From positions 1 through 64,000 of the forward strand of contig JABCTZ010000012.1 of the NCBI GenBank assembly GCA_018238155.1: a stretch of DNA of 64,000 nucleotides. Direction: 5' to 3'. Made by a program: the position numbers and the translations under genes. Below are positions 31,837 to 44,779 of this stretch, in pieces (the stretch's first letter is position 1; every line of letters begins with the position of its first letter). The notes beneath the pieces are model-generated. The model had not been told where the DNA came from. It searched no databases and worked only from the letters and a program-made list of their open reading frames with translations. Source of the DNA: Candidatus Heimdallarchaeota archaeon (GTDB lineage: Archaea > Asgardarchaeota > Heimdallarchaeia > JABLTI01).

Positions 31837-33345
31837 TTGTTCTTTATGAAACCATACAAGAAACTAATGACTCGATATAAAGAGAATACAATTTTAGGAA
31901 ACATTAATGGAATCCTTAGCTGGGATTTCGAAGTAATAATGCCAAAGAAAGGGACACAACAAAGAGCAGAACAATTAGCAATGTTAAGCGGTATGCTTCA
32001 CAAAAGATCCACTGCTCCAGAAATTGGTAATTTAATAGATAAAATACAATCTCATGCAAAATATGGTGACTTGTCCACAATCGAAAAGAGAAACGTTACA
32101 TTAATGAAAAGAGATTATGATAAATTTGTTAAAATTCCAGTCGAATTTGCTCAGGAACTCACTAAGCATGGTGCTATTGCCACAGAGAGCTGGAAAAAAG
32201 CAAAGACGAAAGCTGACTATTCTATTTTTAAGAAAGACTTGGCAAAAATGATTGATTTAAAGAAGAAACAAGCACACTATTTTGATTCTGAAAAAGATCC
32301 TTATGATGTTCTTCTTGATTATAACGAGTTTGGTTTTTCCACGAAAATATATGATAAGATTTTTGATGAAGCAAAAGCAGGGTTAGTGCCCATTATTAAG
32401 GCAATAGCGGGTTCACCAAACCAACCAGATGATACACTCATTCTAAGACATTGCCCTGTTGATATTCAACGCAAAGTGATATTCGATATCGCTAAATTTG
32501 TACAGTATGATCTCGAGGGAGGACGAATAGATGAAGCAGTTCATCCATTTACAAGTGGCTTTTTTGATGATGTTCGCATTACAGTAAAATATTATCCTGA
32601 AGATTTCACTCCTGCATTTTATTCTTCTTTACATGAAGCAGGTCATGGGTTATATGAACAAAATTTTCCACAAGAGTTCAAGTACCAACCTGTTGGTCAA
32701 GCTTCCTCTAGTGCAATGCATGAAGGTCAAGCACGTTTTATCGAAAATATAATAGGTCGAAGTGATGAATTCTGGGAATTTTACTTGCCACGTTTCAAAG
32801 AATTGACTGGGAAAACATTTGCTGATGTAGAGTTAAAACCATTCATCCATGCAATTAACAAAGTTTCGTCAACAAAGATACGAATTCATGCTGATCCAGT
32901 AACATATTCTTTGCATATCATTCTTCGTTACGAAATTGAGAAAGATATTTTTGCTGATAAAATAACTGTTGATGAAATTCCATCTGTTTGGAATAATAAA
33001 ATGAAGGACTATCTTGGAATTGATATTGAAAATGATGCTGAAGGATGTCTACAAGATACTCATTGGGCTTGGCAATATTTTGGGTATTTCCCAACTTATG
33101 CTCTTGGAAGTTATTACAATGCACAATTCCTCTCAAAAATGACTCAAGATATCCCAAATTGGCGAGATGAAATACGCACAGGTAAAATAGCTACTATACA
33201 TAATTGGTTGAATACTAACATCCGCAAAAAAGGAGGTCTTCAAGATCCATTGGATATGGTTAAGGATATCACTGGAAAAGAATTCTCCGCAAAGTACTTT
33301 ATTGAAAATACTAAAGATAAATACTCTAAATTATATGGCTTGTAA
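31837..33345 (+). CDS. M32 carboxypeptidase (Taq/PfuCP family), copy 1
   Basis: HPF, DVRIT, HEAGH, HEGQ, GCLQDTHW, GYFPTY. Confidence 0.95.
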   Translation: MFFMKPYKKLMTRYKENTILGNINGILSWDFEVIMPKKGTQQRAEQLAMLSGMLHKRSTAPEIGNLIDKIQSHAKYGDLSTIEKRNVTLMKRDYDKFVKIPVEFAQELTKHGAIATESWKKAKTKADYSIFKKDLAKMIDLKKKQAHYFDSEKDPYDVLLDYNEFGFSTKIYDKIFDEAKAGLVPIIKAIAGSPNQPDDTLILRHCPVDIQRKVIFDIAKFVQYDLEGGRIDEAVHPFTSGFFDDVRITVKYYPEDFTPAFYSSLHEAGHGLYEQNFPQEFKYQPVGQASSSAMHEGQARFIENIIGRSDEFWEFYLPRFKELTGKTFADVELKPFIHAINKVSSTKIRIHADPVTYSLHIILRYEIEKDIFADKITVDEIPSVWNNKMKDYLGIDIENDAEGCLQDTHWAWQYFGYFPTYALGSYYNAQFLSKMTQDIPNWRDEIRTGKIATIHNWLNTNIRKKGGLQDPLDMVKDITGKEFSAKYFIENTKDKYSKLYGL

Positions 33346-33436
33346 CTGAGCCATTTATCTTTTCTTTTTTTAACAAAAAAACCAATTCGATATAATCCTT
33401 TTAAATAACAAAGGCAATTATTTTTTTTGTAGATGA

Positions 33437-34963
33437 TTGTTGATGGTGAAAATAACTCAAGAAATTGACTTGTACGAAAAATTGCTTGCAAAAATTAAAG
33501 AAATTACTATCTTAAATAATGCTCTAGGAACGATTTATTGGGATATGGAGACTTTTATGCCAAAAGGAGGCATTGAACAAAGGTCAGAAGAAATAGCCAT
33601 TATGAGTGGTTTAATTCATGAAAGAGTTGTCGAACCTGAAATTGGTTCTCTTTTAGAGAAAATCAAACAACATAATAATTACGAAAAGCTTTCTGATGCT
33701 GAGAAAAGAAATATCTATCTCATTCAAAGATCATATGACCAACAAACTAAGATTCCTAAAGATTTAGTGATGGCTTATGCAAAGCAAGCTGCTATTGGAG
33801 TTGAAATCTGGAAAAAAGCAAAAGCTGAATCTAATTATAAATTATTTCAACCCGAGTTAGAGAAAATCCTTGAATTAACTAAAAAACAAGCTCACTATCT
33901 CAATCCAGATAAGGATCCATATGATGTTTTATTGGATCAAAATGAACCCGGTTTTAACAGGGAGATAATTGACAAGCTCTTTTCTGAATTACGAGATGGT
34001 TTGAAACTTCTTATTAAAGACACTGTTGAAGCACCAAATCAACCTGATTATTCTATTATTGAACGAAAATGCCCTGTTGAAATACAGAAGAAAATGTCTG
34101 AAGATATGGCTAAATTAATCAAATTTGATTTTAAGAGGGGGCGAATTGATGAGGCTGTTCATCCTTTCACCTCAGGTTACTATGACGATGTCAGAGTAAC
34201 TACAAGATATATTGAAAATGATTTTTCCTCAAATCTCTTCGCGGTTTTGCATGAATGCGGTCATGCTCTCTATGAACAGAATATGCCTAAGAAATTCAAA
34301 TACCAACCTGTGGGTTACTATTGTTCAATGGGTTTTCATGAAGCACAAGCAAGATTTTTTGAGAATATTGTAGGACGAAGTAGAGAATTTTGGGAACAAT
34401 ACTATCCTAGATTCAAAGAACTAACTGGAGAAATATTTGCTGATATAGAATTTGATGTTTTCCTTCGTGCTTTGAATAAAGTGAATCCATCTAAGATACG
34501 TGTAGAAGCTGATCCAGTAACATATTCATTACACATTATTTTGCGCTATGAAATTGAAAAAGAACTTTTTGCTGGTAAAATTTCTTTAGATGATTTACCA
34601 AAGGTCTGGAATCAAAAAATGAAAGATTATCTAGGTATTGACATAGAGGATGATGCTGAGGGAGTACTACAAGATACACATTGGGCTGGTGGAGGCTTTG
34701 GATACTTCCCTGACTATGCTCTTGGCAACATTTACGATGGACAGCTTCTTTGGACGATGGAACAAGATATCCCTAACTGGCGTGATCAAGTTAAAAAAGG
34801 TGATAACTCAAAAATTGTTAACTGGATGGTTAAAAATGTTCACCAAAAAGGAAATCTTCTAGATGCACTCGATTTAATCAAAGAAATAACTGGTGAAGAG
34901 CTTTCCACAAAATACTATCTAGATTATTTACGAAAAGAATATAAGAAATTATATTCTTTGTAA
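33437..34963 (+). CDS. M32 carboxypeptidase, copy 2
   Basis: HPF, DVRVT, HECGH, IRVEAD, GVLQDTHW, GFGYFP. Confidence 0.95.
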   Translation: MLMVKITQEIDLYEKLLAKIKEITILNNALGTIYWDMETFMPKGGIEQRSEEIAIMSGLIHERVVEPEIGSLLEKIKQHNNYEKLSDAEKRNIYLIQRSYDQQTKIPKDLVMAYAKQAAIGVEIWKKAKAESNYKLFQPELEKILELTKKQAHYLNPDKDPYDVLLDQNEPGFNREIIDKLFSELRDGLKLLIKDTVEAPNQPDYSIIERKCPVEIQKKMSEDMAKLIKFDFKRGRIDEAVHPFTSGYYDDVRVTTRYIENDFSSNLFAVLHECGHALYEQNMPKKFKYQPVGYYCSMGFHEAQARFFENIVGRSREFWEQYYPRFKELTGEIFADIEFDVFLRALNKVNPSKIRVEADPVTYSLHIILRYEIEKELFAGKISLDDLPKVWNQKMKDYLGIDIEDDAEGVLQDTHWAGGGFGYFPDYALGNIYDGQLLWTMEQDIPNWRDQVKKGDNSKIVNWMVKNVHQKGNLLDALDLIKEITGEELSTKYYLDYLRKEYKKLYSL

Positions 34964-35742: not shown

Positions 35743-36516
35743 ATGAAAACTCCTTCCGGAATTGATGATATACCCATTACGAATTCTGAGGACTTAGCAG
35801 TCAGTCGGTCTCAAGAGTTATGTGATTTGATATTTCATTTTGCTCCTAAGCAGAAAATTGATGAATTTTACAAATGGTTGAAGGAATTTTTACAATACAA
35901 TACCAATTTTCCACAAAACAAAGAAATACATAATCTCTTAGCAAAATCTCTGAAAGAAGCAATTCGATTGTTTGGAGAACGGAAAGCTTTTGCAGATATG
36001 TTGTATGTTCTTGATGAATTATACTCCATTTACACAATAGGTTTCGAATCTGAAACTCTGAGTGAAATGTTGGCAGAAGCATATGCGGTAGCAATTTTCT
36101 ATTTAAGAGGGTCCTGGGACATCGAAGGCACTTCAACGCTTCTAAAACGACTTCGAGTTTTACTTAAAAAACATCCCAAGAATAATAAGATCGCTGTTCA
36201 ATATGCGAAAAGTTATTCAGATGCAATAAATCGTTTTTGTTCTGATAGACATAATTTTACTTGTGATAAGCTCTTATTTGAGCTACGAATGTTTGCAAAT
36301 AAAACCAAAGATAATGAATCAATTCAATATGAGTTTGCCCAAGCACTGACAAGTGTTATTGGAACATTTGCACGAGAAGAACGCTTTGAAGAGCTTGAAA
36401 AAGTTTTGAACGAATTACGTCAAATTGCTAGTCGTTTCCCCAAAAGTGAAAAAATTCAATTACTCTTAACAAGAGGAACTATTCTCTCATCTCTTGCTGA
36501 TACCAGTACAGAATAA
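35743..36516 (+). CDS. Alpha-helical repeat (solenoid) protein
   Basis: About 40-aa repeats of the form LxELRxxAxxxPxxxxIxxxxAxxL. Confidence 0.65.
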   Translation: MKTPSGIDDIPITNSEDLAVSRSQELCDLIFHFAPKQKIDEFYKWLKEFLQYNTNFPQNKEIHNLLAKSLKEAIRLFGERKAFADMLYVLDELYSIYTIGFESETLSEMLAEAYAVAIFYLRGSWDIEGTSTLLKRLRVLLKKHPKNNKIAVQYAKSYSDAINRFCSDRHNFTCDKLLFELRMFANKTKDNESIQYEFAQALTSVIGTFAREERFEELEKVLNELRQIASRFPKSEKIQLLLTRGTILSSLADTSTE

Positions 36517-36728
36517 TTCTTTTATTAAAAGAGAAAAGAAAAAACGAAAAACTCGTTTAGTTTCTAACCAAGGAGGTTTGTTTTCATTGGAATACTTTCG
36601 TTTGACTCTTGTAATTTTCTTTAAAAAACATAATCCTTTTTTGTGCATAATAGTCTTAATTTCAACTAGCGTTTTATTGCTAATTATATAAAGGAGAAAT
36701 AAATAGATACATTTAGGGATGAAATCAT

Positions 36729-37601
36729 ATGCTAGAAAAACAAAAAGAAATTCTAATTGCTGTGAAGGAAAACATAGAAAAAATTGAATCTGAAAGATAT
36801 AATTCCAAAGATCCAGTTGTAACTATTGATAAAAGTGATTCTCATCAAAATGTTATTGTGAAATTATTGACAGCAGAACGAACAGGAGCGCCTTTGATCC
36901 TGGAAAAGGAAACTCTTTATCCCGCAGAAGATTTAGCTAAGAGGAATTTCTCTAAAGGAGTAACAACATTAAATTCTTGGCGATTTAGAAAAAGTTCAAC
37001 CCATTTTACAGACGCTGCAAACCTTGCTCGCGATTTAGTTTTACAGCAAAGAATTAATCTCTATAAACAGTTACATTCATTATTACAATCTACCGTTTTG
37101 ACCGCACCTGATAAAATCATAAAAAGCAAAGGAAAATTATTCGCGGAAGTTCTTAATTCTTTGAAAAAATATGATAAATTGTCTGAAGAAGAACAATATT
37201 ATTATCAACGAATTATTGATTCTCTGTATGGTATTGCGAGTTTATTGGTTGCAGGAGATAAAAAGACAAAAACCCAGCAGCTGTTTGTAAGATGTACTAT
37301 TTCTTTAAGCAATCGTGAATACCTCGCAGCAAATATTTGGCTCTTTAAAATCTACTTGCTGAATAGAGATGCTTTCGATTCTTTGGCAGCTAGTGATAAA
37401 ATATTACAAAAAGCACTCAAATCTCTCCAATTATATGTTGAAGTAGAAGCGGGTCTAAAAGAGTTCGCTGAAGGTTTACCTATAATGGCAAGTGCCTATG
37501 ATTTACAAACTATTTTTGCTGATTATCTCAAAACAGTTTTTGATATTGAATTTATTGTTGAAACAAAGAGGGATTTTGGCTTTCCAGAATATCGGGTGTA
37601 A
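36729..37601 (+). CDS. Hypothetical protein resembling a degenerate CARF + helical (Csm6/TIGR02710-like) protein
   Basis: The ORF itself is clear. Family similarity is by-eye pattern only (see findings). Confidence 0.45.
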   Translation: MLEKQKEILIAVKENIEKIESERYNSKDPVVTIDKSDSHQNVIVKLLTAERTGAPLILEKETLYPAEDLAKRNFSKGVTTLNSWRFRKSSTHFTDAANLARDLVLQQRINLYKQLHSLLQSTVLTAPDKIIKSKGKLFAEVLNSLKKYDKLSEEEQYYYQRIIDSLYGIASLLVAGDKKTKTQQLFVRCTISLSNREYLAANIWLFKIYLLNRDAFDSLAASDKILQKALKSLQLYVEVEAGLKEFAEGLPIMASAYDLQTIFADYLKTVFDIEFIVETKRDFGFPEYRV

Positions 37602-37617
37602 TATTGGAGTTGATAGT

Positions 37618-40600
37618 ATGGAACACATCAAGAAAAGTCTCAAGACACTCCAACAAACACCAGGAGAACCACAGTTTGTAGATTTCCAAGTTCTATCCGT
37701 TAGACAACGAGATGCAGAAGGAGGATATCATTTGGCTCTTCGTTTGCTTGAACCTGGAACAAGAAATCAAATATGCAAGGCAATTGTTTATCCAATGGAA
37801 TGGTATCCTGGTCGATACGATGATCCTTCATTTTCACATTATCATAGTGTACTTAGATATTGTTTTGCGGGTCTCAAATCTGAAGGAAGACCTGCTGAAC
37901 TGTTATTACAAGTAATGAAAGCTGTTTGGAAACCCGGAAAAGCAAAACCAGCCGGGAAATCTGCAGACGATAATCAAGGTCAGTTAGTAATTCTCAAATT
38001 TATTATTTCACCTGATTATAATATTACGGGTGGTGAGCTTGAGCTCGCTTTTAATTGTCCGGTTAAATATTTTTATGAATCATTTCTTGGATTACAAAGA
38101 GCAATTCGCTCTGCCCCTACGTCAATTGGCTTTGTAAGAGGAAACGCAATTCACAAAGGGATACAATATGCATCAAATGAATGGGTACAGAGTGCTGATC
38201 CCGTGGCTTCTATGAAATCTTATAACAGAGCTGTTATTGATGAATGGAGAGATAATTTTGCTATCCTGCTTCGTAAAAATTATTTTAGAGGTCCAACAAA
38301 GGATTTGAAATTACCTGTTCAAGTTGATTCTATAGTCGTTGATCAAATAGCTGAAAAATTCACTGGTATAGAAGAAACGCAATTATTGAATGAATGTTTA
38401 CTATTTTCTCCTGAGCGAGGAATTTCTGGCAGGGCAGATCAAATTATTCTTAAGGATGATCAAGATGAACTTTGGGAGATAAAAACTGGGAGTAGATATT
38501 TCATTGAATCTGATTATGATCCATTAACTGGTGTAACACATCCGGGTGGGATACAAGCATTTGCTTATCATGATATTGTGAAAAAAGTGTTAGGACGAGC
38601 TCCAAAAGCTTTCATTGAATTTTTTGATGCAGATGCAGGAATGGCTGAAGACAACCCAGAAATTATTCCATTACAAGAGCATGCTGTGATTAAGAGAAGA
38701 AAAATAGACCTTGCTAACACTCAAAGTGATGAATATCTTGACTTGCTCCTACAAACAAGAAATATTTCATTTGCAATAGAGTCAGGATTGCTATCTGGAT
38801 ATGATCGTTACAAAATAAACAAATTTTTGTCTAGAAGATTTATGCCTGCTTTGGGCACAGATTTCAACCTTCTAAGTAGCAATTGGAATCGTATTTGTAA
38901 TTACTGTCCATCGAATCAACAAGGTATTTGTTCTGATGGTCGAGTTCGTTTAGATACTGATATCTGGTTACATTTTCCTCAAGATTTGTTTGAATATTGG
39001 TCTTGGTATTTCAGGCAATTGCGATTTGAATTAAATAATGTTAAAAGATATCTGCATCGACTAGCGACAACACAAGTATCCCTCTTAGAAGAACAAGGAG
39101 TAACAATTTCAGATCTTGCGATAAAGAAATTTGATCCGTACAGATATATTCTCACTCTATCTTCAAAAAAGAGAATTTTCACTCGAATTCGTGAAGGTGA
39201 TAGTGTTTTTGTTACTCCTTCTATTTTAAAACCGGGCGAAATTTTTAGTGTTGAGGGAAAAGTGGAATTTCTTACTACAGATGAAGTGGTCATTAAAACA
39301 CGGTCAACTTTGAAGTCTAGAGGTAAACAGTCAAAAGAATTTAGGATTGATCAAGTACAGAAGGTAATATTTTCGAAATGGCAAACTCGCTCTCTCACTG
39401 ATTTTCTATTTGAGTCAATGAGAAGGACGAATGTTCTTGGTAGAAAATTGTCAAGTAAAGAATTACCAAAAACAGTACAGCTCGTTATTGGAACTACAAA
39501 ACCGAAAAAAATCATTCCTGTTAGTCGAAAGCGATTGTTAAAAGATCTAGACAAATTTAAGGTCGAGGCAATCGAAAAAGCACTAGGCTTGGAAGCAGGT
39601 GAATTTCTTCTAGTTCAAGGCCCACCTGGAACTGGGAAAACAAGAATGATAGCTCAACTTGCCAAAGAAATTTTCTCAGAAAAATATCTCTTACATTCAA
39701 AGGATTTCAATGAAACAGATTATACGTTACCAAAACCAGTTCTAATTTTGACAAATACCCATAGAGCTGCAGATGAAGTTATTATTAAATTGCGTTCATT
39801 TGAAGATCTAAAACCATACATTGTTAGATTGGAATCATATTCAAAGAATCATCCGGAAGAAGTTCAAGAGTACATCATTCCTAATAGAGTCCAGTTCTCA
39901 GAGCATATAAAGGATAAAGCAGATCCCAATCTTTTGGTATCCATTCTCAAGAAAGGTACTGAAATGTATAACCAAGCAGGAATAATCGTTGGCACTCTAG
40001 GAAGTGTTGGAAATAATCTCTTAAAGGGTCTAAATTTCAATTGGGTAATTGTTGATGAAGCTGGACAAGCAACCGAACCTGCCTCTTTGGGTGCACTCCG
40101 TCATTTATGTCCACTTTCTGATTCGAAGGATGGCTATCCGAGAATAGTTTTAGTTGGAGATCACAAACAATTACCTCCTGTAGTTTCTGAAGAAACAATT
40201 GAACATACTCCTCCTGTGCCTAAAGTTCTTCTCAAATCTGGGCTAACGAAAACAGATACACTCAAAACTTCACTCTTTGAAAGATTGTTCAGAATGTGGG
40301 TTGGAAAAAGTAATAATGTTGTTATTTTAGCTGATCAATATCGGATGAATGAAGCAATTTCGAGAATAATTAATCATGCATTTTATCCTGAAGTAAACTA
40401 TGTGCCTGCGAATGATTCCATTGGCAAACACTCTCTGAAGGATTTTCTGGATGCATTTGCTCCTAAGCAAGCGTTCGATAAAAAGAAATTTTCAAGTATA
40501 ATTTTTGATTATAAAATGCCCGTTGTTTTTCTAAACTCAGAAAAAGATCCAAATGGCTTGGAAGGAGTAGAGGATACAGATATACAAACTGAATCTCGTT

Positions 40601-41097
40601 TTAATATTCGAGAAGCAAAAATAATCAGTTCATTACTATCTGAATTTTTAATGAATTATCCAGAAAAGGATCAAATTGCTATTGCAAAACAAATAGGTAT
40701 TATTTCTCCATACCGTCATCAGAACAATCAAATTTATGCTGAATTACGAGCTAAAAAATTCTCAGATGCAGTTATTACACAAATAAGAGTTGATACTGTT
40801 GATAGATATCAAGGTGATGAACGCGAAATAATCATTCTGAGTTTAACAAATAGCAATGAACTAAATACTATCGGTCAGTTGCATCGCGAATGGCGACGAA
40901 TGAACGTTTCAATCAGTAGAGCAAAAGCTAAACTTGTAATCATAGGCAATAAACGAACTTTCATTTTACCTAATTCTGAAGAAAAAGATGTTGAAGCAAA
41001 AGAAAAATTCAAAAAAATGTTTGATACGATTGAAGTATTAAAGAGTGAAAAATTAGCTCTAGAATTGCCTACAGCGAATCTCTTCACTGAAGACTAG
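37618..41097 (+). CDS. Dna2-like nuclease-helicase (Cas4-type Fe-S PD-(D/E)xK nuclease + Upf1-like SF1 helicase)
   Basis: Start at MEHIK behind GGAG. Nuclease: CP...GNAIH...E...GRAD...EIKTG...QAFAY...CNYC-x6-C. Helicase: GPPGTGKT, DEAGQ, GDHKQLPP, QYRM, SPY, TVDRYQGDE, NVSISRAK. Confidence 0.9.
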   Translation: MEHIKKSLKTLQQTPGEPQFVDFQVLSVRQRDAEGGYHLALRLLEPGTRNQICKAIVYPMEWYPGRYDDPSFSHYHSVLRYCFAGLKSEGRPAELLLQVMKAVWKPGKAKPAGKSADDNQGQLVILKFIISPDYNITGGELELAFNCPVKYFYESFLGLQRAIRSAPTSIGFVRGNAIHKGIQYASNEWVQSADPVASMKSYNRAVIDEWRDNFAILLRKNYFRGPTKDLKLPVQVDSIVVDQIAEKFTGIEETQLLNECLLFSPERGISGRADQIILKDDQDELWEIKTGSRYFIESDYDPLTGVTHPGGIQAFAYHDIVKKVLGRAPKAFIEFFDADAGMAEDNPEIIPLQEHAVIKRRKIDLANTQSDEYLDLLLQTRNISFAIESGLLSGYDRYKINKFLSRRFMPALGTDFNLLSSNWNRICNYCPSNQQGICSDGRVRLDTDIWLHFPQDLFEYWSWYFRQLRFELNNVKRYLHRLATTQVSLLEEQGVTISDLAIKKFDPYRYILTLSSKKRIFTRIREGDSVFVTPSILKPGEIFSVEGKVEFLTTDEVVIKTRSTLKSRGKQSKEFRIDQVQKVIFSKWQTRSLTDFLFESMRRTNVLGRKLSSKELPKTVQLVIGTTKPKKIIPVSRKRLLKDLDKFKVEAIEKALGLEAGEFLLVQGPPGTGKTRMIAQLAKEIFSEKYLLHSKDFNETDYTLPKPVLILTNTHRAADEVIIKLRSFEDLKPYIVRLESYSKNHPEEVQEYIIPNRVQFSEHIKDKADPNLLVSILKKGTEMYNQAGIIVGTLGSVGNNLLKGLNFNWVIVDEAGQATEPASLGALRHLCPLSDSKDGYPRIVLVGDHKQLPPVVSEETIEHTPPVPKVLLKSGLTKTDTLKTSLFERLFRMWVGKSNNVVILADQYRMNEAISRIINHAFYPEVNYVPANDSIGKHSLKDFLDAFAPKQAFDKKKFSSIIFDYKMPVVFLNSEKDPNGLEGVEDTDIQTESRFNIREAKIISSLLSEFLMNYPEKDQIAIAKQIGIISPYRHQNNQIYAELRAKKFSDAVITQIRVDTVDRYQGDEREIIILSLTNSNELNTIGQLHREWRRMNVSISRAKAKLVIIGNKRTFILPNSEEKDVEAKEKFKKMFDTIEVLKSEKLALELPTANLFTED

Positions 41098-41110
41098 ATT
41101 GAAATAAATT

Positions 41111-41656
41111 GTGGATCTGATTCAAATGTTAACGGCAGAAAAATTACCGAAAATAGTAGCTGAACTTTTGGTTTTAGAAGAGATTGGATGTACCTATGAT
41201 TTCAAAGAACGCTTTGAAGTTGGGTTAAATAGTTTAGAAGTTTTAGGCTTGGTTAAGCTTATCAAAACACGTATCCCAAGATGTGGAGATCATTGTACAA
41301 AATATCGTGATTGTCAATATATAGCATTGTTTGAAAAACGAAAAAGTAAAACAAAATATCGATTAACAAAAGAAGGGAAAAATCTGGCCGATTATCTTTC
41401 TTCAGAAACAGTTACTAGTAAGAATATAAAATTATTACTTCAAAGAGAATTCAGCAATTATTCTTTTGTAGATTTAATATTGTCTCTTCTGATGGATAGT
41501 CCTGAAATTTCAGTTGAGAAATTGGTCTCGAGTATAATAGCAAATACAAATTTAGCTCTTTATAGTATTCGCACTTCAATAAAGGACATTTTAGATTTAC
41601 TAACAACTTTAGAGATACTAATTATAGATGAAGGTAAAATAACTACTTATACTTAA
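41111..41656 (+). CDS. Tandem winged-helix protein with a Cys-rich insertion
   Basis: LEVLGLV...YRLTKEG wHTH with CGDHC-x5-C in the wing; second wHTH ends LLTTLEILIIDEG. Confidence 0.65.
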   Translation: MDLIQMLTAEKLPKIVAELLVLEEIGCTYDFKERFEVGLNSLEVLGLVKLIKTRIPRCGDHCTKYRDCQYIALFEKRKSKTKYRLTKEGKNLADYLSSETVTSKNIKLLLQREFSNYSFVDLILSLLMDSPEISVEKLVSSIIANTNLALYSIRTSIKDILDLLTTLEILIIDEGKITTYT

Positions 41657-41766
41657 AGAATGCTTATTAAGAGGTATTTAGTTTGATATTATTGTTAATT
41701 TAGCTATAAAGAGGCAAAGATATTTCATAATCATTAATCATTCAAATTTAGAGCTTAAATTGAGTT

Positions 41767-44064
41767 GTGCTGAAAATGTCATTGAAAAAAGTAAGTAGTT
41801 CATTACTAAGTCAAATTGGTTTCTCAGAACTAGAGCAGCAAGTATATTTAACGATTCTGGGAATAGGCAATGCATCCTTGGGTGAAATGTATCTTCAAAC
41901 GGGGATATCTTTTGAAGATTTACAAAATGTTGTTGATGAATTATCTGATAGAGGTTATCTTAAGAAAATAGCCGGTAAAATCAATAGATATATTGCTGTT
42001 GAACCATTTCTTAAGGGATTTTTATTTGTTGAAAAGGAATTTCAAAATGATATTATTGGCATTGAAAATTCATTAATTAATTCTTTTGATACTAGTTATG
42101 ATAAATTAAATCTTAGCATGGACAATTTCATTGGGTCAATTAGTCCCATTTATGATAAAATAGTAGAAGAGCTGCGCCTTTCTAATGAAAAGTTAAAGAT
42201 GGATCTAACAAATTCTATCTATCGTCATTCTGATAAAATCTCTAATCTTGCAGAAAGTTTTGATGTTATACTTTCTGAAGGCTTCTCTAAAACGTATTTA
42301 TCTATTAGCAATGAGCTTTCAAATCTTAGTAATGAAATAAGTGTTATTCTTCGTGAAGAATCTACTAATGCTACTACTCGATTGCAAACTTTTGAACAAA
42401 TAACAAACCAAACACTTACAAATATTATTCAACCATTAGATGATTCAATAATTGAATATAAAGCGTCTGCACCTGTTAAACAAAAATTAATTTTAGATGA
42501 ACACAGACACGAAATATCTAATCTTCAAAAGAATATCAAATCAATCACTAAACTAAGTTTGAAAGATATTGCTACATCCCTTAAGGAATTCGAGAAGGAA
42601 TTTTTAGAACTTCTTTCTACAGCTTCAAATGGATATGCAACGGTCATCAAAGATTACAAAACAGCTACTCACACATTAGTGAGTGAAAAGAAGAAAAAAT
42701 TAGATGGTGCAGTAGTAAAACTTGTACAATATATTGGCAAAAATGTCGATCAACTTTCACAAGAAGCTCATAACTTGAAAGGAAATATAGATGAATTAAC
42801 TAAAACTGGTTTATTGAAACGCCCTCCTCCTCAATTAGTACAAGAAGCAAAAGAACGTGCAGATAAAATCGATCGTTTATCAATAGATATCAAAGGTGCT
42901 TATGATGAAGCCCTTAAAACATATCAGAAGGATATCATAGAAGGTCTGAACGACTTTATAAAAATAAATGATGCTTTATTAACTAAACAACTTGCAGGTG
43001 GAAATAGCCAGATCAAAGCTCTTAAAATTAAGATTGCTAGTACCTGGACTGCTATAGCAAAGAAATATGAGACTGATTTAACAGCTGCTGTCAAAGAAGT
43101 GCTAAAGGAATCCAACCCAAAACTCACAAGTACCTCTAAAGAGGCATTCAATAATACGCTCAAGCATATTGAGGTTCTAAAAAACAGTGTTTCAGTAATT
43201 TTAGCTCCATTAAAGGATGTTATCTTTAAGGATCTTGAAGATTGTATGGAAAACCTCTTTTTGAATTCAGCAAAGAGATTGCGATATCATAATGATTCTA
43301 ATAATAAATCATTGGAAACAATACGCCATCTAACTGATGATATGAAATTTGTTTTCAAGAATCAAGTACAAGAAGAATTGAGTAAACCAAAGCAAATTGC
43401 TTCTGAAATGATAAGCGATTATACCAGTACACTTGACAACTATCTAACCACTCTCAATAGAGATCAAGGTGCAACTCTTGATACAATTACAACAGCAGCA
43501 GAAACTTTCCTCAATGTCTTGAAGGATTCATACTCAACTTCGAGTAATGAAATCTCCAACCGATTAGCGGCAATTATTTACAAGGTCAACGAAACTAAAA
43601 CATATCTCCAAGAAATCACCAATGCTGTGGATCAAATTCTTCCTGTTCCAAAACCACATTCAATCATTGTTTATGGCAATCAAAATTCAATGAATACTAT
43701 TTACGATATGCTCCTTCGTACTCGGTCAACTTGCACTATTGTAGTTCCAACAATTGATCAATATCTTGTTGATCTTCTTTCTAAACAAGTCTCAAAGAGA
43801 GTACGAATAAGAATATTAGCTGATGTAGATCCATTCAGAGATGAAGCGATGGTTGCAGCTTTGAAACAACAAGGCAATATTACTATTTGGAATTACAATA
43901 TGAGAGACTTCTTTGCAGTTACTCGAGATGGTGCCGAAGTATTACTTGCTCCTGTCACTCGAGATGGTGAGCTGACAAGTTTCGTTACAGAACAAGATGC
44001 TTTAGTAAGAGCAATTCAACAAATTATCAATGCATCTTTCATGGCTCGTTCAAAAGAAGTTTAA
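41767..44064 (+). CDS. TrmB-family HTH + long helical/coiled-coil region + TrmB-type (PLD-like) C-terminal domain
   Basis: GFSELEQQVYLTIL...LSDRGYL...YIAVEP at the N-terminus; about 545 aa helical region; C-terminal IVVP...RVRILAD...TRDGAEVLLAP. Confidence 0.8.
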   Translation: MLKMSLKKVSSSLLSQIGFSELEQQVYLTILGIGNASLGEMYLQTGISFEDLQNVVDELSDRGYLKKIAGKINRYIAVEPFLKGFLFVEKEFQNDIIGIENSLINSFDTSYDKLNLSMDNFIGSISPIYDKIVEELRLSNEKLKMDLTNSIYRHSDKISNLAESFDVILSEGFSKTYLSISNELSNLSNEISVILREESTNATTRLQTFEQITNQTLTNIIQPLDDSIIEYKASAPVKQKLILDEHRHEISNLQKNIKSITKLSLKDIATSLKEFEKEFLELLSTASNGYATVIKDYKTATHTLVSEKKKKLDGAVVKLVQYIGKNVDQLSQEAHNLKGNIDELTKTGLLKRPPPQLVQEAKERADKIDRLSIDIKGAYDEALKTYQKDIIEGLNDFIKINDALLTKQLAGGNSQIKALKIKIASTWTAIAKKYETDLTAAVKEVLKESNPKLTSTSKEAFNNTLKHIEVLKNSVSVILAPLKDVIFKDLEDCMENLFLNSAKRLRYHNDSNNKSLETIRHLTDDMKFVFKNQVQEELSKPKQIASEMISDYTSTLDNYLTTLNRDQGATLDTITTAAETFLNVLKDSYSTSSNEISNRLAAIIYKVNETKTYLQEITNAVDQILPVPKPHSIIVYGNQNSMNTIYDMLLRTRSTCTIVVPTIDQYLVDLLSKQVSKRVRIRILADVDPFRDEAMVAALKQQGNITIWNYNMRDFFAVTRDGAEVLLAPVTRDGELTSFVTEQDALVRAIQQIINASFMARSKEV

Positions 44065-44092: not shown

Positions 44093-44779
44093 TCATTTGA
44101 AAATGGTTAACAATCTCTGAATTTCTTTAAACCAATTCGAAATACTTTTTTGAATAACTTTCTTAGTTTTATCTGGCACATGCCATAGTTCTATAAGATC
44201 AAATTCTCTTTTAGATGTTTCAAACATGTTTTTGAGGAGTGCCAGAACAATTTTGTTCTTTTTCATCAATTTACGTGAAACAGCACTTAGTGGAATTGGT
44301 TGTTCCTTACCAAAGGATTCCAATATACCCAAAATTCCTAGACAGCTGCTTTCAAGAAAAACATCAAAGGAATTTGTCAAGGGGATGTAAACGTGATATG
44401 CAGGCATAGTTAAGAGAACTAAGGGATTGCCATCTGGATCAAGATTTTTCATATCAAGTAAGTAAAATGCTTCTTCATCGTTTGTTGCAAATAAAATAAA
44501 ACGATTATCGGGAAGATGATTTACTTTTTTCCTAGTAAGAATGAGGTTTTCACATGAATTTATCAGTAGGTGTGATGGGTCCTCTAAATCATCTAGAAAA
44601 TACTCGGAATCAATCATTAAACCATTTGTTTGCTCGTAAAAAAGTTTCAAATGATCTGGTAATTCCATGTTCTTAAAAAATAATAGTTCTTTAATATGGA
44701 TGCGAGTGAGTCCATTGTAAAAAGTGACTTCTACTCTTGAATCATCTAAATAATTATCCAGTATCTGAATTTTCTTCAC
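44093..44779 (-). CDS. SMI1/KNR4-family protein
   Basis: LPDHLKLFYEQTNG, ILFA...YLLD, LTNSFDVFLE. Confidence 0.7.
   Translation of the reverse strand: MKKIQILDNYLDDSRVEVTFYNGLTRIHIKELLFFKNMELPDHLKLFYEQTNGLMIDSEYFLDDLEDPSHLLINSCENLILTRKKVNHLPDNRFILFATNDEEAFYLLDMKNLDPDGNPLVLLTMPAYHVYIPLTNSFDVFLESSCLGILGILESFGKEQPIPLSAVSRKLMKKNKIVLALLKNMFETSKREFDLIELWHVPDKTKKVIQKSISNWFKEIQRLLTIFK

Follow-up and report, generated by a model that had tools for sequence, protein, structure and literature searches.

Three adjacent genes on a 64,000-nucleotide (nt) window of contig JABCTZ010000012.1 from Candidatus Heimdallarchaeota archaeon (the window being the whole stretch of DNA that was analyzed) form a real, conserved and unnamed cassette. 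The genes, here called g1, g2 and g3, encode a helical protein, a Dna2-like nuclease-helicase and a predicted tandem winged-helix protein. The cassette is present in the host's own Heimdallarchaeial family (family f1, comprising two genera), in Chloroflexota and in Armatimonadota, and g1 and g3 are fixed neighbors of g2 across two domains of life. We regard it as an even call that g1 to g3 constitute one operon for a three-part Dna2-type machine acting on the cell's own DNA. The fuller account falls a little short of that mark: an unrecognized heterotrimeric Dna2-type machine, with accessory subunits that belong to no described families, would have passed a single time between Asgard archaea and bacteria of the Chloroflexota type, displacing in one Heimdallarchaeial family the Dna2 with a C-terminal RING-H2 finger (Dna2-RING).

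The first-pass annotation of this DNA had grouped g1 to g3 with a fourth gene, g4, as four co-oriented genes separated by 16, 13 and about 110 nt. The open reading frames and gaps are indeed as it gave them, apart from slight corrections to two start codons. As called, the frames span 36729-37601 (290 amino acids [aa]), 37618-41097 (1159 aa), 41111-41656 (181 aa) and 41767-44064 (765 aa), all on the + strand, with spacings of 16 nt (g1/g2), 13 nt (g2/g3) and 110 nt (g3/g4). Database orthologues and an invariant Met in the alignments moved the start of g3 to the ATG at 41126 (176 aa, gap of 28 nt) and that of g4 to the ATG at 41776 (762 aa, gap of 119 nt). The resulting features of the locus are as follows.

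36684..36692, + strand: TATA-box-like element TTATATAAA, read from the sequence, 36 nt 5' of the g1 start codon
36729..37601, + strand: g1, 290-aa all-helical partner of an unnamed family
37618..41097, + strand: g2, 1159-aa Dna2-like nuclease-helicase
41126..41656, + strand: g3, 176-aa tandem winged helix (181 aa if read from the GTG at 41111)
41776..44064, + strand: g4, 762 aa, with a TrmB-type helix-turn-helix (HTH), a helical region of ~550 aa and a conserved C-terminal domain

The TTATATAAA element is a putative cassette promoter, and an A/T-rich TTTTTATT-type element was found at a similar spot 5' of g1 in five further genomes of family f1. The GC content at the cassette resembles that of the remainder of the window.

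Within family f1, 9 of 11 genomes carry a single, syntenic copy of the cassette, and a tenth has a g1 fragment at a contig end. As the whole 20-kb region is syntenic in this family, adjacency there proves little. That the arrangement goes beyond chance follows instead from the recurrence of g1 to g3 together in distant genomes with unrelated flanks. Neither g1 nor g3 was found in the 72 genomes of the other families in the class, and a search of 5.8 billion proteins for their spread recovered close Heimdallarchaeial relatives only. An exhaustive HMMER search with g2 recovered full-length relatives (36-40% identity) on bacterial contigs, where the g2 homologues are overlapped by a 5' gene of 312-330 aa and a 3' gene of 176-204 aa. 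The gene directly 5' of g2 in these bacteria is g1 (hhalign probability 98.2-98.6%, E 1e-14 to 1e-15), and the gene directly 3' is g3 (probability 94-95%, E 4e-8 to 1e-7), with its Cys/His motif retained. Iterated hidden Markov models (HMMs) gave E values of 1e-25 to 1e-48 for bacterial g3.

A locus scan of one genome per species, in which the N-terminal half of g2 served as the query and neighbors were called with iterated HMMs, yielded 40 loci from Thermomicrobium, other Thermomicrobiales, Dehalococcoidia, Chloroflexia, Armatimonadota and Heimdallarchaeota. All assessable archaeal loci, which belong to one Heimdallarchaeial family, carry the genes in the order g1-g2-g3. Of the bacterial loci, 26 could be assessed on both sides, and 17 of these have the same order, with -14 to +47 nt between neighboring genes, whose stop and start codons mostly overlap or nearly abut. 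The other nine bacterial loci carry g1-g2 only (four loci), g3 without g1 (four loci, g3 lying 5' of g2 in two of them) or g2 alone (one locus). The flanks of the cassette vary by lineage and include upp and an S8 peptidase gene in Thermomicrobium, MgtE and EAL genes in Thermalbibacter, Memo in Dehalococcoidia, and M32 peptidase and POR genes in the archaea. The cassette was present in 14 of 61 sampled Thermomicrobiales, scattered through Dehalococcoidia, Chloroflexia and Armatimonadota, and found in one archaeal family. Among thermophilic Chloroflexota, the cultured Thermomicrobium roseum DSM 5159 carries it on a 918-kb non-mobilizable megaplasmid, where the three genes (TRD_RS12340, TRD_RS12345 and TRD_RS12350) are annotated as "hypothetical," "AAA domain-containing" and "hypothetical." Co-location in other genomes, on which the proposed module had been staked beforehand, was thus observed for g1 to g3 and not for g4. 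A functional module centered on a Dna2-like enzyme, as the first-pass annotation envisaged, is therefore upheld for the three genes that recur together and has to be given up for the fourth.

The trees of g1, g2 and g3 contain the same major groups, and the archaeal sequences form one clade with 100% support in each. In the g2 tree, which was built without eukaryotic Dna2 sequences and those of the bacterial nuclease-helicase Bad, the archaeal and bacterial groups are reciprocally monophyletic sisters. The g2 family forms its own long-stemmed clade beside, not within, the Asgard Dna2-like proteins, with Lokiarchaeial Dna2-like proteins as its sister. The relationship to Dna2 suggested earlier is therefore retained as kinship, but not as membership in Dna2 proper.

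The g2 protein consists of a family-specific N-terminal domain (aa 1-130), a nuclease domain (aa ~140-440, nt 38035-38937), a stalk/barrel and a superfamily 1B (SF1B) helicase (aa ~640-1115, nt 39535-40962). Pfam matches comprised PDDEXK_1 (residues 140-431; 30.7 bits against a cutoff of 22), AAA_11 (E 1.8e-33) and AAA_12 (E 2.7e-43). Among solved structures, mouse DNA2 gave the best match (E 8e-32, helicase part), and residues 129-1111 are colinear with the ~1000-aa Heimdallarchaeial Dna2 at 27% identity. The complete-looking nuclease and SF1 helicase motifs previously read from this 1159-aa protein are a property of the whole family, being invariant in 39 of 39 aligned members. They include the nuclease residues H179, E259, D274, E287-x-K289 and Q313-xxx-Y317, four cysteines around the nuclease core (C147 on the N-terminal and C427/C430/C438 on the C-terminal side), and the helicase motifs Walker A (GKT 673-675), Walker B (DE 813-814), motif III and RR 1093-1094. 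The nuclease residues are likewise invariant in Asgard Dna2. Judged by its sequence, g2 has lost none of the catalytic residues of either an iron-staple-type PD-(D/E)XK nuclease or an SF1B motor.

The Pfam Dna2 model (PF08696) had no match in g2 or anywhere in the window's genome at E values up to 1, whereas Dna2 proteins of the sister families match it at E 7e-13. Likewise, a profile of the nuclease (N-terminal) half of g2 found no chain below E 0.3 among solved structures. For these two reasons, g2 is classified as Dna2-like by architecture and motifs and would not be an orthologue of Dna2 proper. The comparison set for Dna2 consisted of the mouse DNA2 structures 5EAN, 5EAW and 5EAX and Asgard Dna2 homologues (PMC12680538). 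The order of domains in g2 (predicted iron-sulfur [Fe-S] PD-(D/E)XK nuclease, stalk/barrel, SF1B helicase) is that of Dna2. However, apart from the missing PF08696 match, g2 differs from Dna2 in its extra family-specific N-terminal domain of ~130 aa, in its two dedicated partner genes and in the place of its C-terminal cysteines, which form a second set (C-x2-C-x7-C) further downstream than the canonical C-x2-C-x5-C of sister-family Dna2. Unlike other Heimdallarchaeial Dna2, it has no C-terminal RING-H2 finger.

The Bad protein of Geobacillus stearothermophilus contains an Fe-S cluster and is a single-stranded DNA (ssDNA) endonuclease and 5'-3' translocase/helicase (PMC7430649). Like g2, it combines a prokaryotic iron-staple nuclease with an SF1B helicase and is sporadically distributed (PMC7430649), and its biochemistry offers the best available model for g2. 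By analogy with Bad, g2 is predicted to hold a 4Fe-4S cluster at its cysteines, to cut ssDNA as an endonuclease and to translocate in the 5'-3' direction. In contrast to g2, Bad is described as a single protein, with no g1- or g3-like partners reported in the passages of that source consulted here (PMC7430649), and g2 is set apart from it by this description. The two also differ in their hosts, as the g2 family occurs in Chloroflexota, Armatimonadota and Heimdallarchaeia and Bad in Firmicutes, Proteobacteria and Mycobacteria (PMC7430649).

Homology of g1 or g3 to the subunits of AddAB, RecBCD or AdnAB was not detected. These machines combine helicase and nuclease, are encoded by genes that adjoin or overlap and have chromosomal housekeeping functions, and AddB has an Fe-S PD-(D/E)XK nuclease. 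The cassette resembles them in its neighboring helicase-nuclease genes, its predicted Fe-S PD-(D/E)XK nuclease and its housekeeping context. However, the motor of g2 is of the Upf1-like SF1B type and not of the UvrD-like SF1A type, and its partners are small and non-enzymatic rather than a second motor or nuclease.

The small protein downstream of g2 had been called a tandem winged HTH (wHTH), and its structural model confirms this fold. The model of g3 (predicted local distance difference test [pLDDT] of 85.2) contains two consecutive helix-helix-helix-strand-strand units, i.e., two winged helices, the C-terminal one of which matches ArsR/SmtB-type wHTH domains (Z 8.5-9.6, root mean square deviation [rmsd] 2-3 Å). 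Whole-chain Foldseek rows were weak (E 0.03-0.08) and included the FokI recognition domain and the tandem winged-helix domain of Rpc5. ESM Atlas returned generic double-wHTH, FokI-recognition and DUF7226 leads at 0.86-0.90, as well as a Chloroflexota cluster that is probably bacterial g3. Nothing below E 0.3 was found among solved structures with the g3 profile, and neither the archaeal nor the bacterial versions belong to a Pfam, NCBIfam or PADLOC family. A Cys4-His motif (C27...P56-x-C58-x2-H61-C62-x5-C68) is inserted in the first winged helix and is kept in 31-32 of 32 homologues; it is a putative Zn or Fe-S site. The model thus presents g3 as a predicted DNA-binding tandem winged-helix protein.

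The g1 protein had been described as CARF-like. Apart from three strands of 3 residues each within the first 63 residues, its model (pLDDT 91.8) is helical and contains no Rossmann-like alpha/beta fold, which leaves the CARF-like label unsupported. An Arg...His motif of the HEPN type (R-x4-6-H) is also missing, as no His is invariant in 18 archaeal sequences or in a 10-sequence cross-domain alignment. The residues invariant in the latter are R, P, R, P, E, A, W, Q, Q, L, P, D, Y and L, and the positions kept in both domains of life are R23, D28-P29, E50-R51, P65-x-E67-D68, W84, Q106-Q107, D149 and Y159, among them the invariant R23, P29, R51, P65, E67, W84, Q106, Q107, D149 and Y159. Archaeal and bacterial versions alike match no Pfam, NCBIfam or PADLOC family, and the g1 profile found nothing below E 0.3 among solved structures. 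The top fold matches obtained with VIA-align were Csm6 chains (Z 10.9, 10.2 and 9.5 over 236-258 residues, rmsd 7-8 Å), at Z values in the range (under ~13) that the tool's own warning gives as unreliable for helical proteins. The top Foldseek rows were Csx1/Csm6 at E 0.4, and ESM Atlas returned weak unrelated rows only, by features and by shape (TM of at most 0.34). Most of g1 aligns with the 6H and HEPN helical part of Csm6, at Z values below the trusted level. However, g1 differs from Csm6/Csx1 in that it lacks the CARF Rossmann domain and the R-x4-6-H motif, lies outside any CRISPR context and shows no match at the sequence level.

RNA is a frequent substrate of Upf1-like helicases and of Csm6/HEPN-like proteins. 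As the g2 helicase is of the Upf1/Sen1/IGHMBP2 type and g1 has a faint likeness to Csm6, the cassette could be read as an RNA-directed surveillance module. We consider this highly improbable, since the nearest solved and phylogenetic relatives of g2 are Dna2 proteins, its nuclease is of the Fe-S PD-(D/E)XK type found in the DNA enzymes Dna2, AddB and Cas4, and g1 lacks the HEPN catalytic residues.

The genomic context leans towards the cell's own DNA. Dna2-RING is present in the sister families, from which g1 and g3 are absent. When the window's genome and the 12 genomes of family f1 were searched with Dna2-RING, no further Dna2-like gene was recovered. In this family, the cassette fills the place of the sister families' Dna2-RING, and because it occupies that place, it most likely takes part in double-strand-break resection or in flap or fork processing. 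Genes for defense or mobile elements adjoin the cassette at none of the annotated loci. The cassette had no match among 50,697 phage records and one among 72,556 plasmids, namely, the T. roseum megaplasmid. In two Thermomicrobium genomes, no large RecB/AddAB-type PDDEXK_1 protein was found, which is a weak hint. Between defense and repair, the two roles considered in the first-pass annotation, the context leans to repair or maintenance, and it favors chromosomal end or flap processing within that range. A machine acting on the cell's own DNA is preferred because g2 is the sole Dna2-like gene found in family f1 and because the cassette is single-copy, syntenic, flanked by ordinary genes, absent from phages and present on one plasmid.

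In such a machine, a free 5' single-stranded end would be threaded through the nuclease ring of g2, as in Dna2 and Bad. By the same analogy, the g2 helicase would then move 5' to 3', and the strand would be cut while being reeled in. The g3 protein could bind duplex or junction DNA and position or hold the enzyme where DNA ends, flaps or stalled forks occur, and g1 may serve as a non-catalytic helical scaffold, i.e., a structural or regulatory subunit. Physical interaction, expression and activity of the three proteins are predicted only, which counts against this proposal; a look-up of sequencing runs for the 7.5-kb stretch returned none. The prediction of a g2-g3 complex with g1 (g2 residues 1-525, own alignments) scored 0.16 against a mark of 0.32; it gives no verdict and is not used as evidence.

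The Dna2 proteins of the sister families (~970-1025 aa, PF08696 and SF1B; L029:7949-10939, L030 and L032-L036) end in a RING-H2 finger of the pattern C-x2-C...C-P-x-C-x3-H-x2-H...C-x2-C. This fusion suggests that Dna2 and the ubiquitin system of Asgard archaea are connected. In two genera of family f2 (L029:7338-7847 and L036:10902-11417), a small stand-alone gene for a PLD-family (NgoFVII-like) nuclease lies divergent from Dna2-RING.

As stated in the first-pass annotation, the combination of genes matches no named system, g1 and g3 being in no Pfam, NCBIfam or PADLOC family. The PADLOC screen that it had called for recovered no described system; PADLOC/NCBIfam matches to the defense models MkoA, MkoC, DpdJ, ProA and Hhe are confined to the helicase half of g2 and lie far below any curated cutoff. 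The likeness to Mokosh (MkoA and MkoB; MkoC) is that of the Upf1-like helicase half of g2, which scores 261-287 bits against the PADLOC MkoA models. Unlike Mokosh, however, g1 to g4 contain no PLD nuclease in Pfam, whether fused or separate, and the nuclease of g2 is of the Dna2-type PD-(D/E)XK kind. Moreover, g1 and g3 match no Mokosh component, and the MkoA/MkoC matches cover the helicase half only. Prometheus (ProA) has a four-domain architecture that includes DUF4011 and DUF3320 (PMC13700489). For g2, the corresponding model NF058533 gave 42.4 bits against a cutoff of 1500, over residues 992-1109 only, and DUF4011 and DUF3320 were not found by Pfam.

Several observations weigh against a machine for the cell's own DNA. 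The distribution of the cassette, which has spread as one unit across domains in a patchy manner, also fits an accessory or defense cassette. Its overlapping genes are arranged in operon style, and a compact operon that pairs a nuclease-helicase with small winged-helix proteins is a layout typical of antiviral defense. The score of the g2 helicase half against MkoA and the best, albeit weak, fold matches of g1 to the CRISPR ancillary protein Csm6 point in the same direction. In one genome of the family (G005), g2 is broken (L023:9571-13065): two in-frame stops, one TGA and one TAA, divide it into pieces of 592, 216 and 330 aa. The gene may have become a pseudogene, and so may be dispensable, or the stops may reflect a faulty assembly of this metagenome-assembled genome, which has 7% contamination. 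Single-protein nuclease-helicase defenses constructed from Dna2-like parts do exist, e.g., Prometheus (PMC13700489). Together, these observations could describe an undescribed antiviral or anti-plasmid system in which g3 would recognize foreign or abnormal DNA, g2 would degrade it, and g1, as a degenerate HEPN/Csm6-like protein, would regulate or sense. We rate such a system as possible but distinctly the less probable. Neither the archaeal nor the bacterial forms of g1 and g3 belong to a PADLOC or NCBIfam defense family, and the cassette lies outside defense islands, among annotated neighbors that are all ordinary. Its position is stable across the whole archaeal family and the Thermomicrobium species, and its near absence from plasmids, its absence from phages and the standing of g2 as the only Dna2-like gene found in family f1 likewise argue against an antiviral role.

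Two further points tell against the machine for the cell's own DNA. Variants of the cassette exist without g1, without g3 or with g3 upstream, and NurA is present in 7 of 11 genomes of family f1, although it was not found in the window's genome. The idea that the cassette complements a loss of the HerA-NurA resection route in family f1 was rejected, as NurA occurs in most genomes of the family.

The fourth gene, the TrmB rod of the original proposal, does not belong to the module. It is a conserved neighbor in the archaeal family f1 only and lies outside the cassette. Pfam identifies TrmB at the N-terminal HTH of g4 (E 6e-8), which is followed by ~550 helical residues and by a C-terminal domain that is 71-100% identical within the family. 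A full-length TrmB regulator with the effector-binding domain was not recovered: the Pfam match is confined to the N-terminal HTH, and the full-length model NF040851 gave 27.4 bits against a cutoff of 600. The genome of the window encodes at least four TrmB-HTH/helical-region proteins in unrelated contexts. Proteins with a TrmB HTH, a helical region of ~550 aa and the C-terminal domain constitute a multi-paralogue Heimdallarchaeial family, members of which were located as follows.

Genome G000, contig C39, ~115-118 kb and ~147-149 kb: g4-family proteins
Genome G000, contig C4, ~63-65 kb: g4-family protein
Locus L065, 7562-9859: g4-family protein
Locus L066, 7285-9582: g4-family protein

In family f2, g4 has an orthologue of 765 aa that matches it over the full length; it is 40-50 kb away from the Dna2 gene of that family and lies beside genes for endonucleases III and V and for a Ras-like GTPase. 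A linkage of g4 and Dna2 conserved in family f2 was considered and rejected; the TrmB-coiled-coil protein near Dna2-RING is a different paralogue, alignable only across the HTH and the beginning of the helical region (E 2e-6).

A four-gene module, in which g4 would add a long scaffold to g1 to g3, is accordingly judged improbable. It could draw on the presence of g4 after g3 in all seven family loci with that side visible, including genome G007, where g3 and g4 remain side by side although a 3-kb insertion parts them from g2. A TrmB-coiled-coil paralogue also lies ~1 kb upstream of the Dna2-RING gene in family f2, and the endonuclease III and V genes beside the f2 orthologue hint at a DNA-related role. 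However, g4 is missing at 37 of 37 bacterial loci, the 20-kb synteny within the family gives its adjacency little weight, and its true f2 orthologue is far from Dna2. The paralogues in unrelated contexts and a TATAAA element of its own, within the 119-nt gap 5' of g4, likewise speak against membership, and g4 is probably transcribed separately.

In the window, g1 is preceded by genes for two M32 carboxypeptidases, a DUF6557 protein and a 257-aa protein (orf257), and g4 is followed by genes for a SUKH protein, 2-oxoacid:ferredoxin oxidoreductase subunits, a glycosyltransferase and FtsZ. The gene orf257 (35743-36516) was rejected as a fifth member of the cassette because it is missing at the bacterial loci and because, in one genome, an insertion of 6 kb lies between it and g1. 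That insertion (genome G010, L024:10145-16126) is a cluster of genes for a glycerophosphotransferase, a nucleotidyltransferase, two FkbM methyltransferases and a GT1 glycosyltransferase. The 3-kb insertion between g2 and g3 in genome G007 (L025:7054-10020) comprises a DUF7033/deacetylase gene and a GT4 gene, and the genes inserted in or beside the cassette in both genomes are of glycan biosynthesis. The M32 (Taq-type) carboxypeptidase genes (31837-34963) are a tandem duplicate, ~52-55% identical, and the pair is kept in most genomes of the family. The SUKH-1 (SMI1/KNR4) gene (44093-44779, - strand) is convergent with g4 and syntenic throughout family f1. The SUKH fold is often a mark of immunity proteins in toxin systems, and no toxin gene was seen nearby.

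Dna2 is a core enzyme of eukaryotic replication and repair, and its roots have been sought among Asgard archaea (PMC12680538). In place of a canonical Dna2, one Heimdallarchaeial family has a divergent Dna2-like enzyme locked to two partners, in a cassette that provides a clear-cut case of a replication- or repair-type module crossing between domains of life. T. roseum is a tractable organism in which to ask how accessory subunits target or regulate a Dna2-type motor-nuclease. It is equally suited to questions about the role of a metal-binding tandem winged helix at DNA ends and about repair machines versus immune systems.

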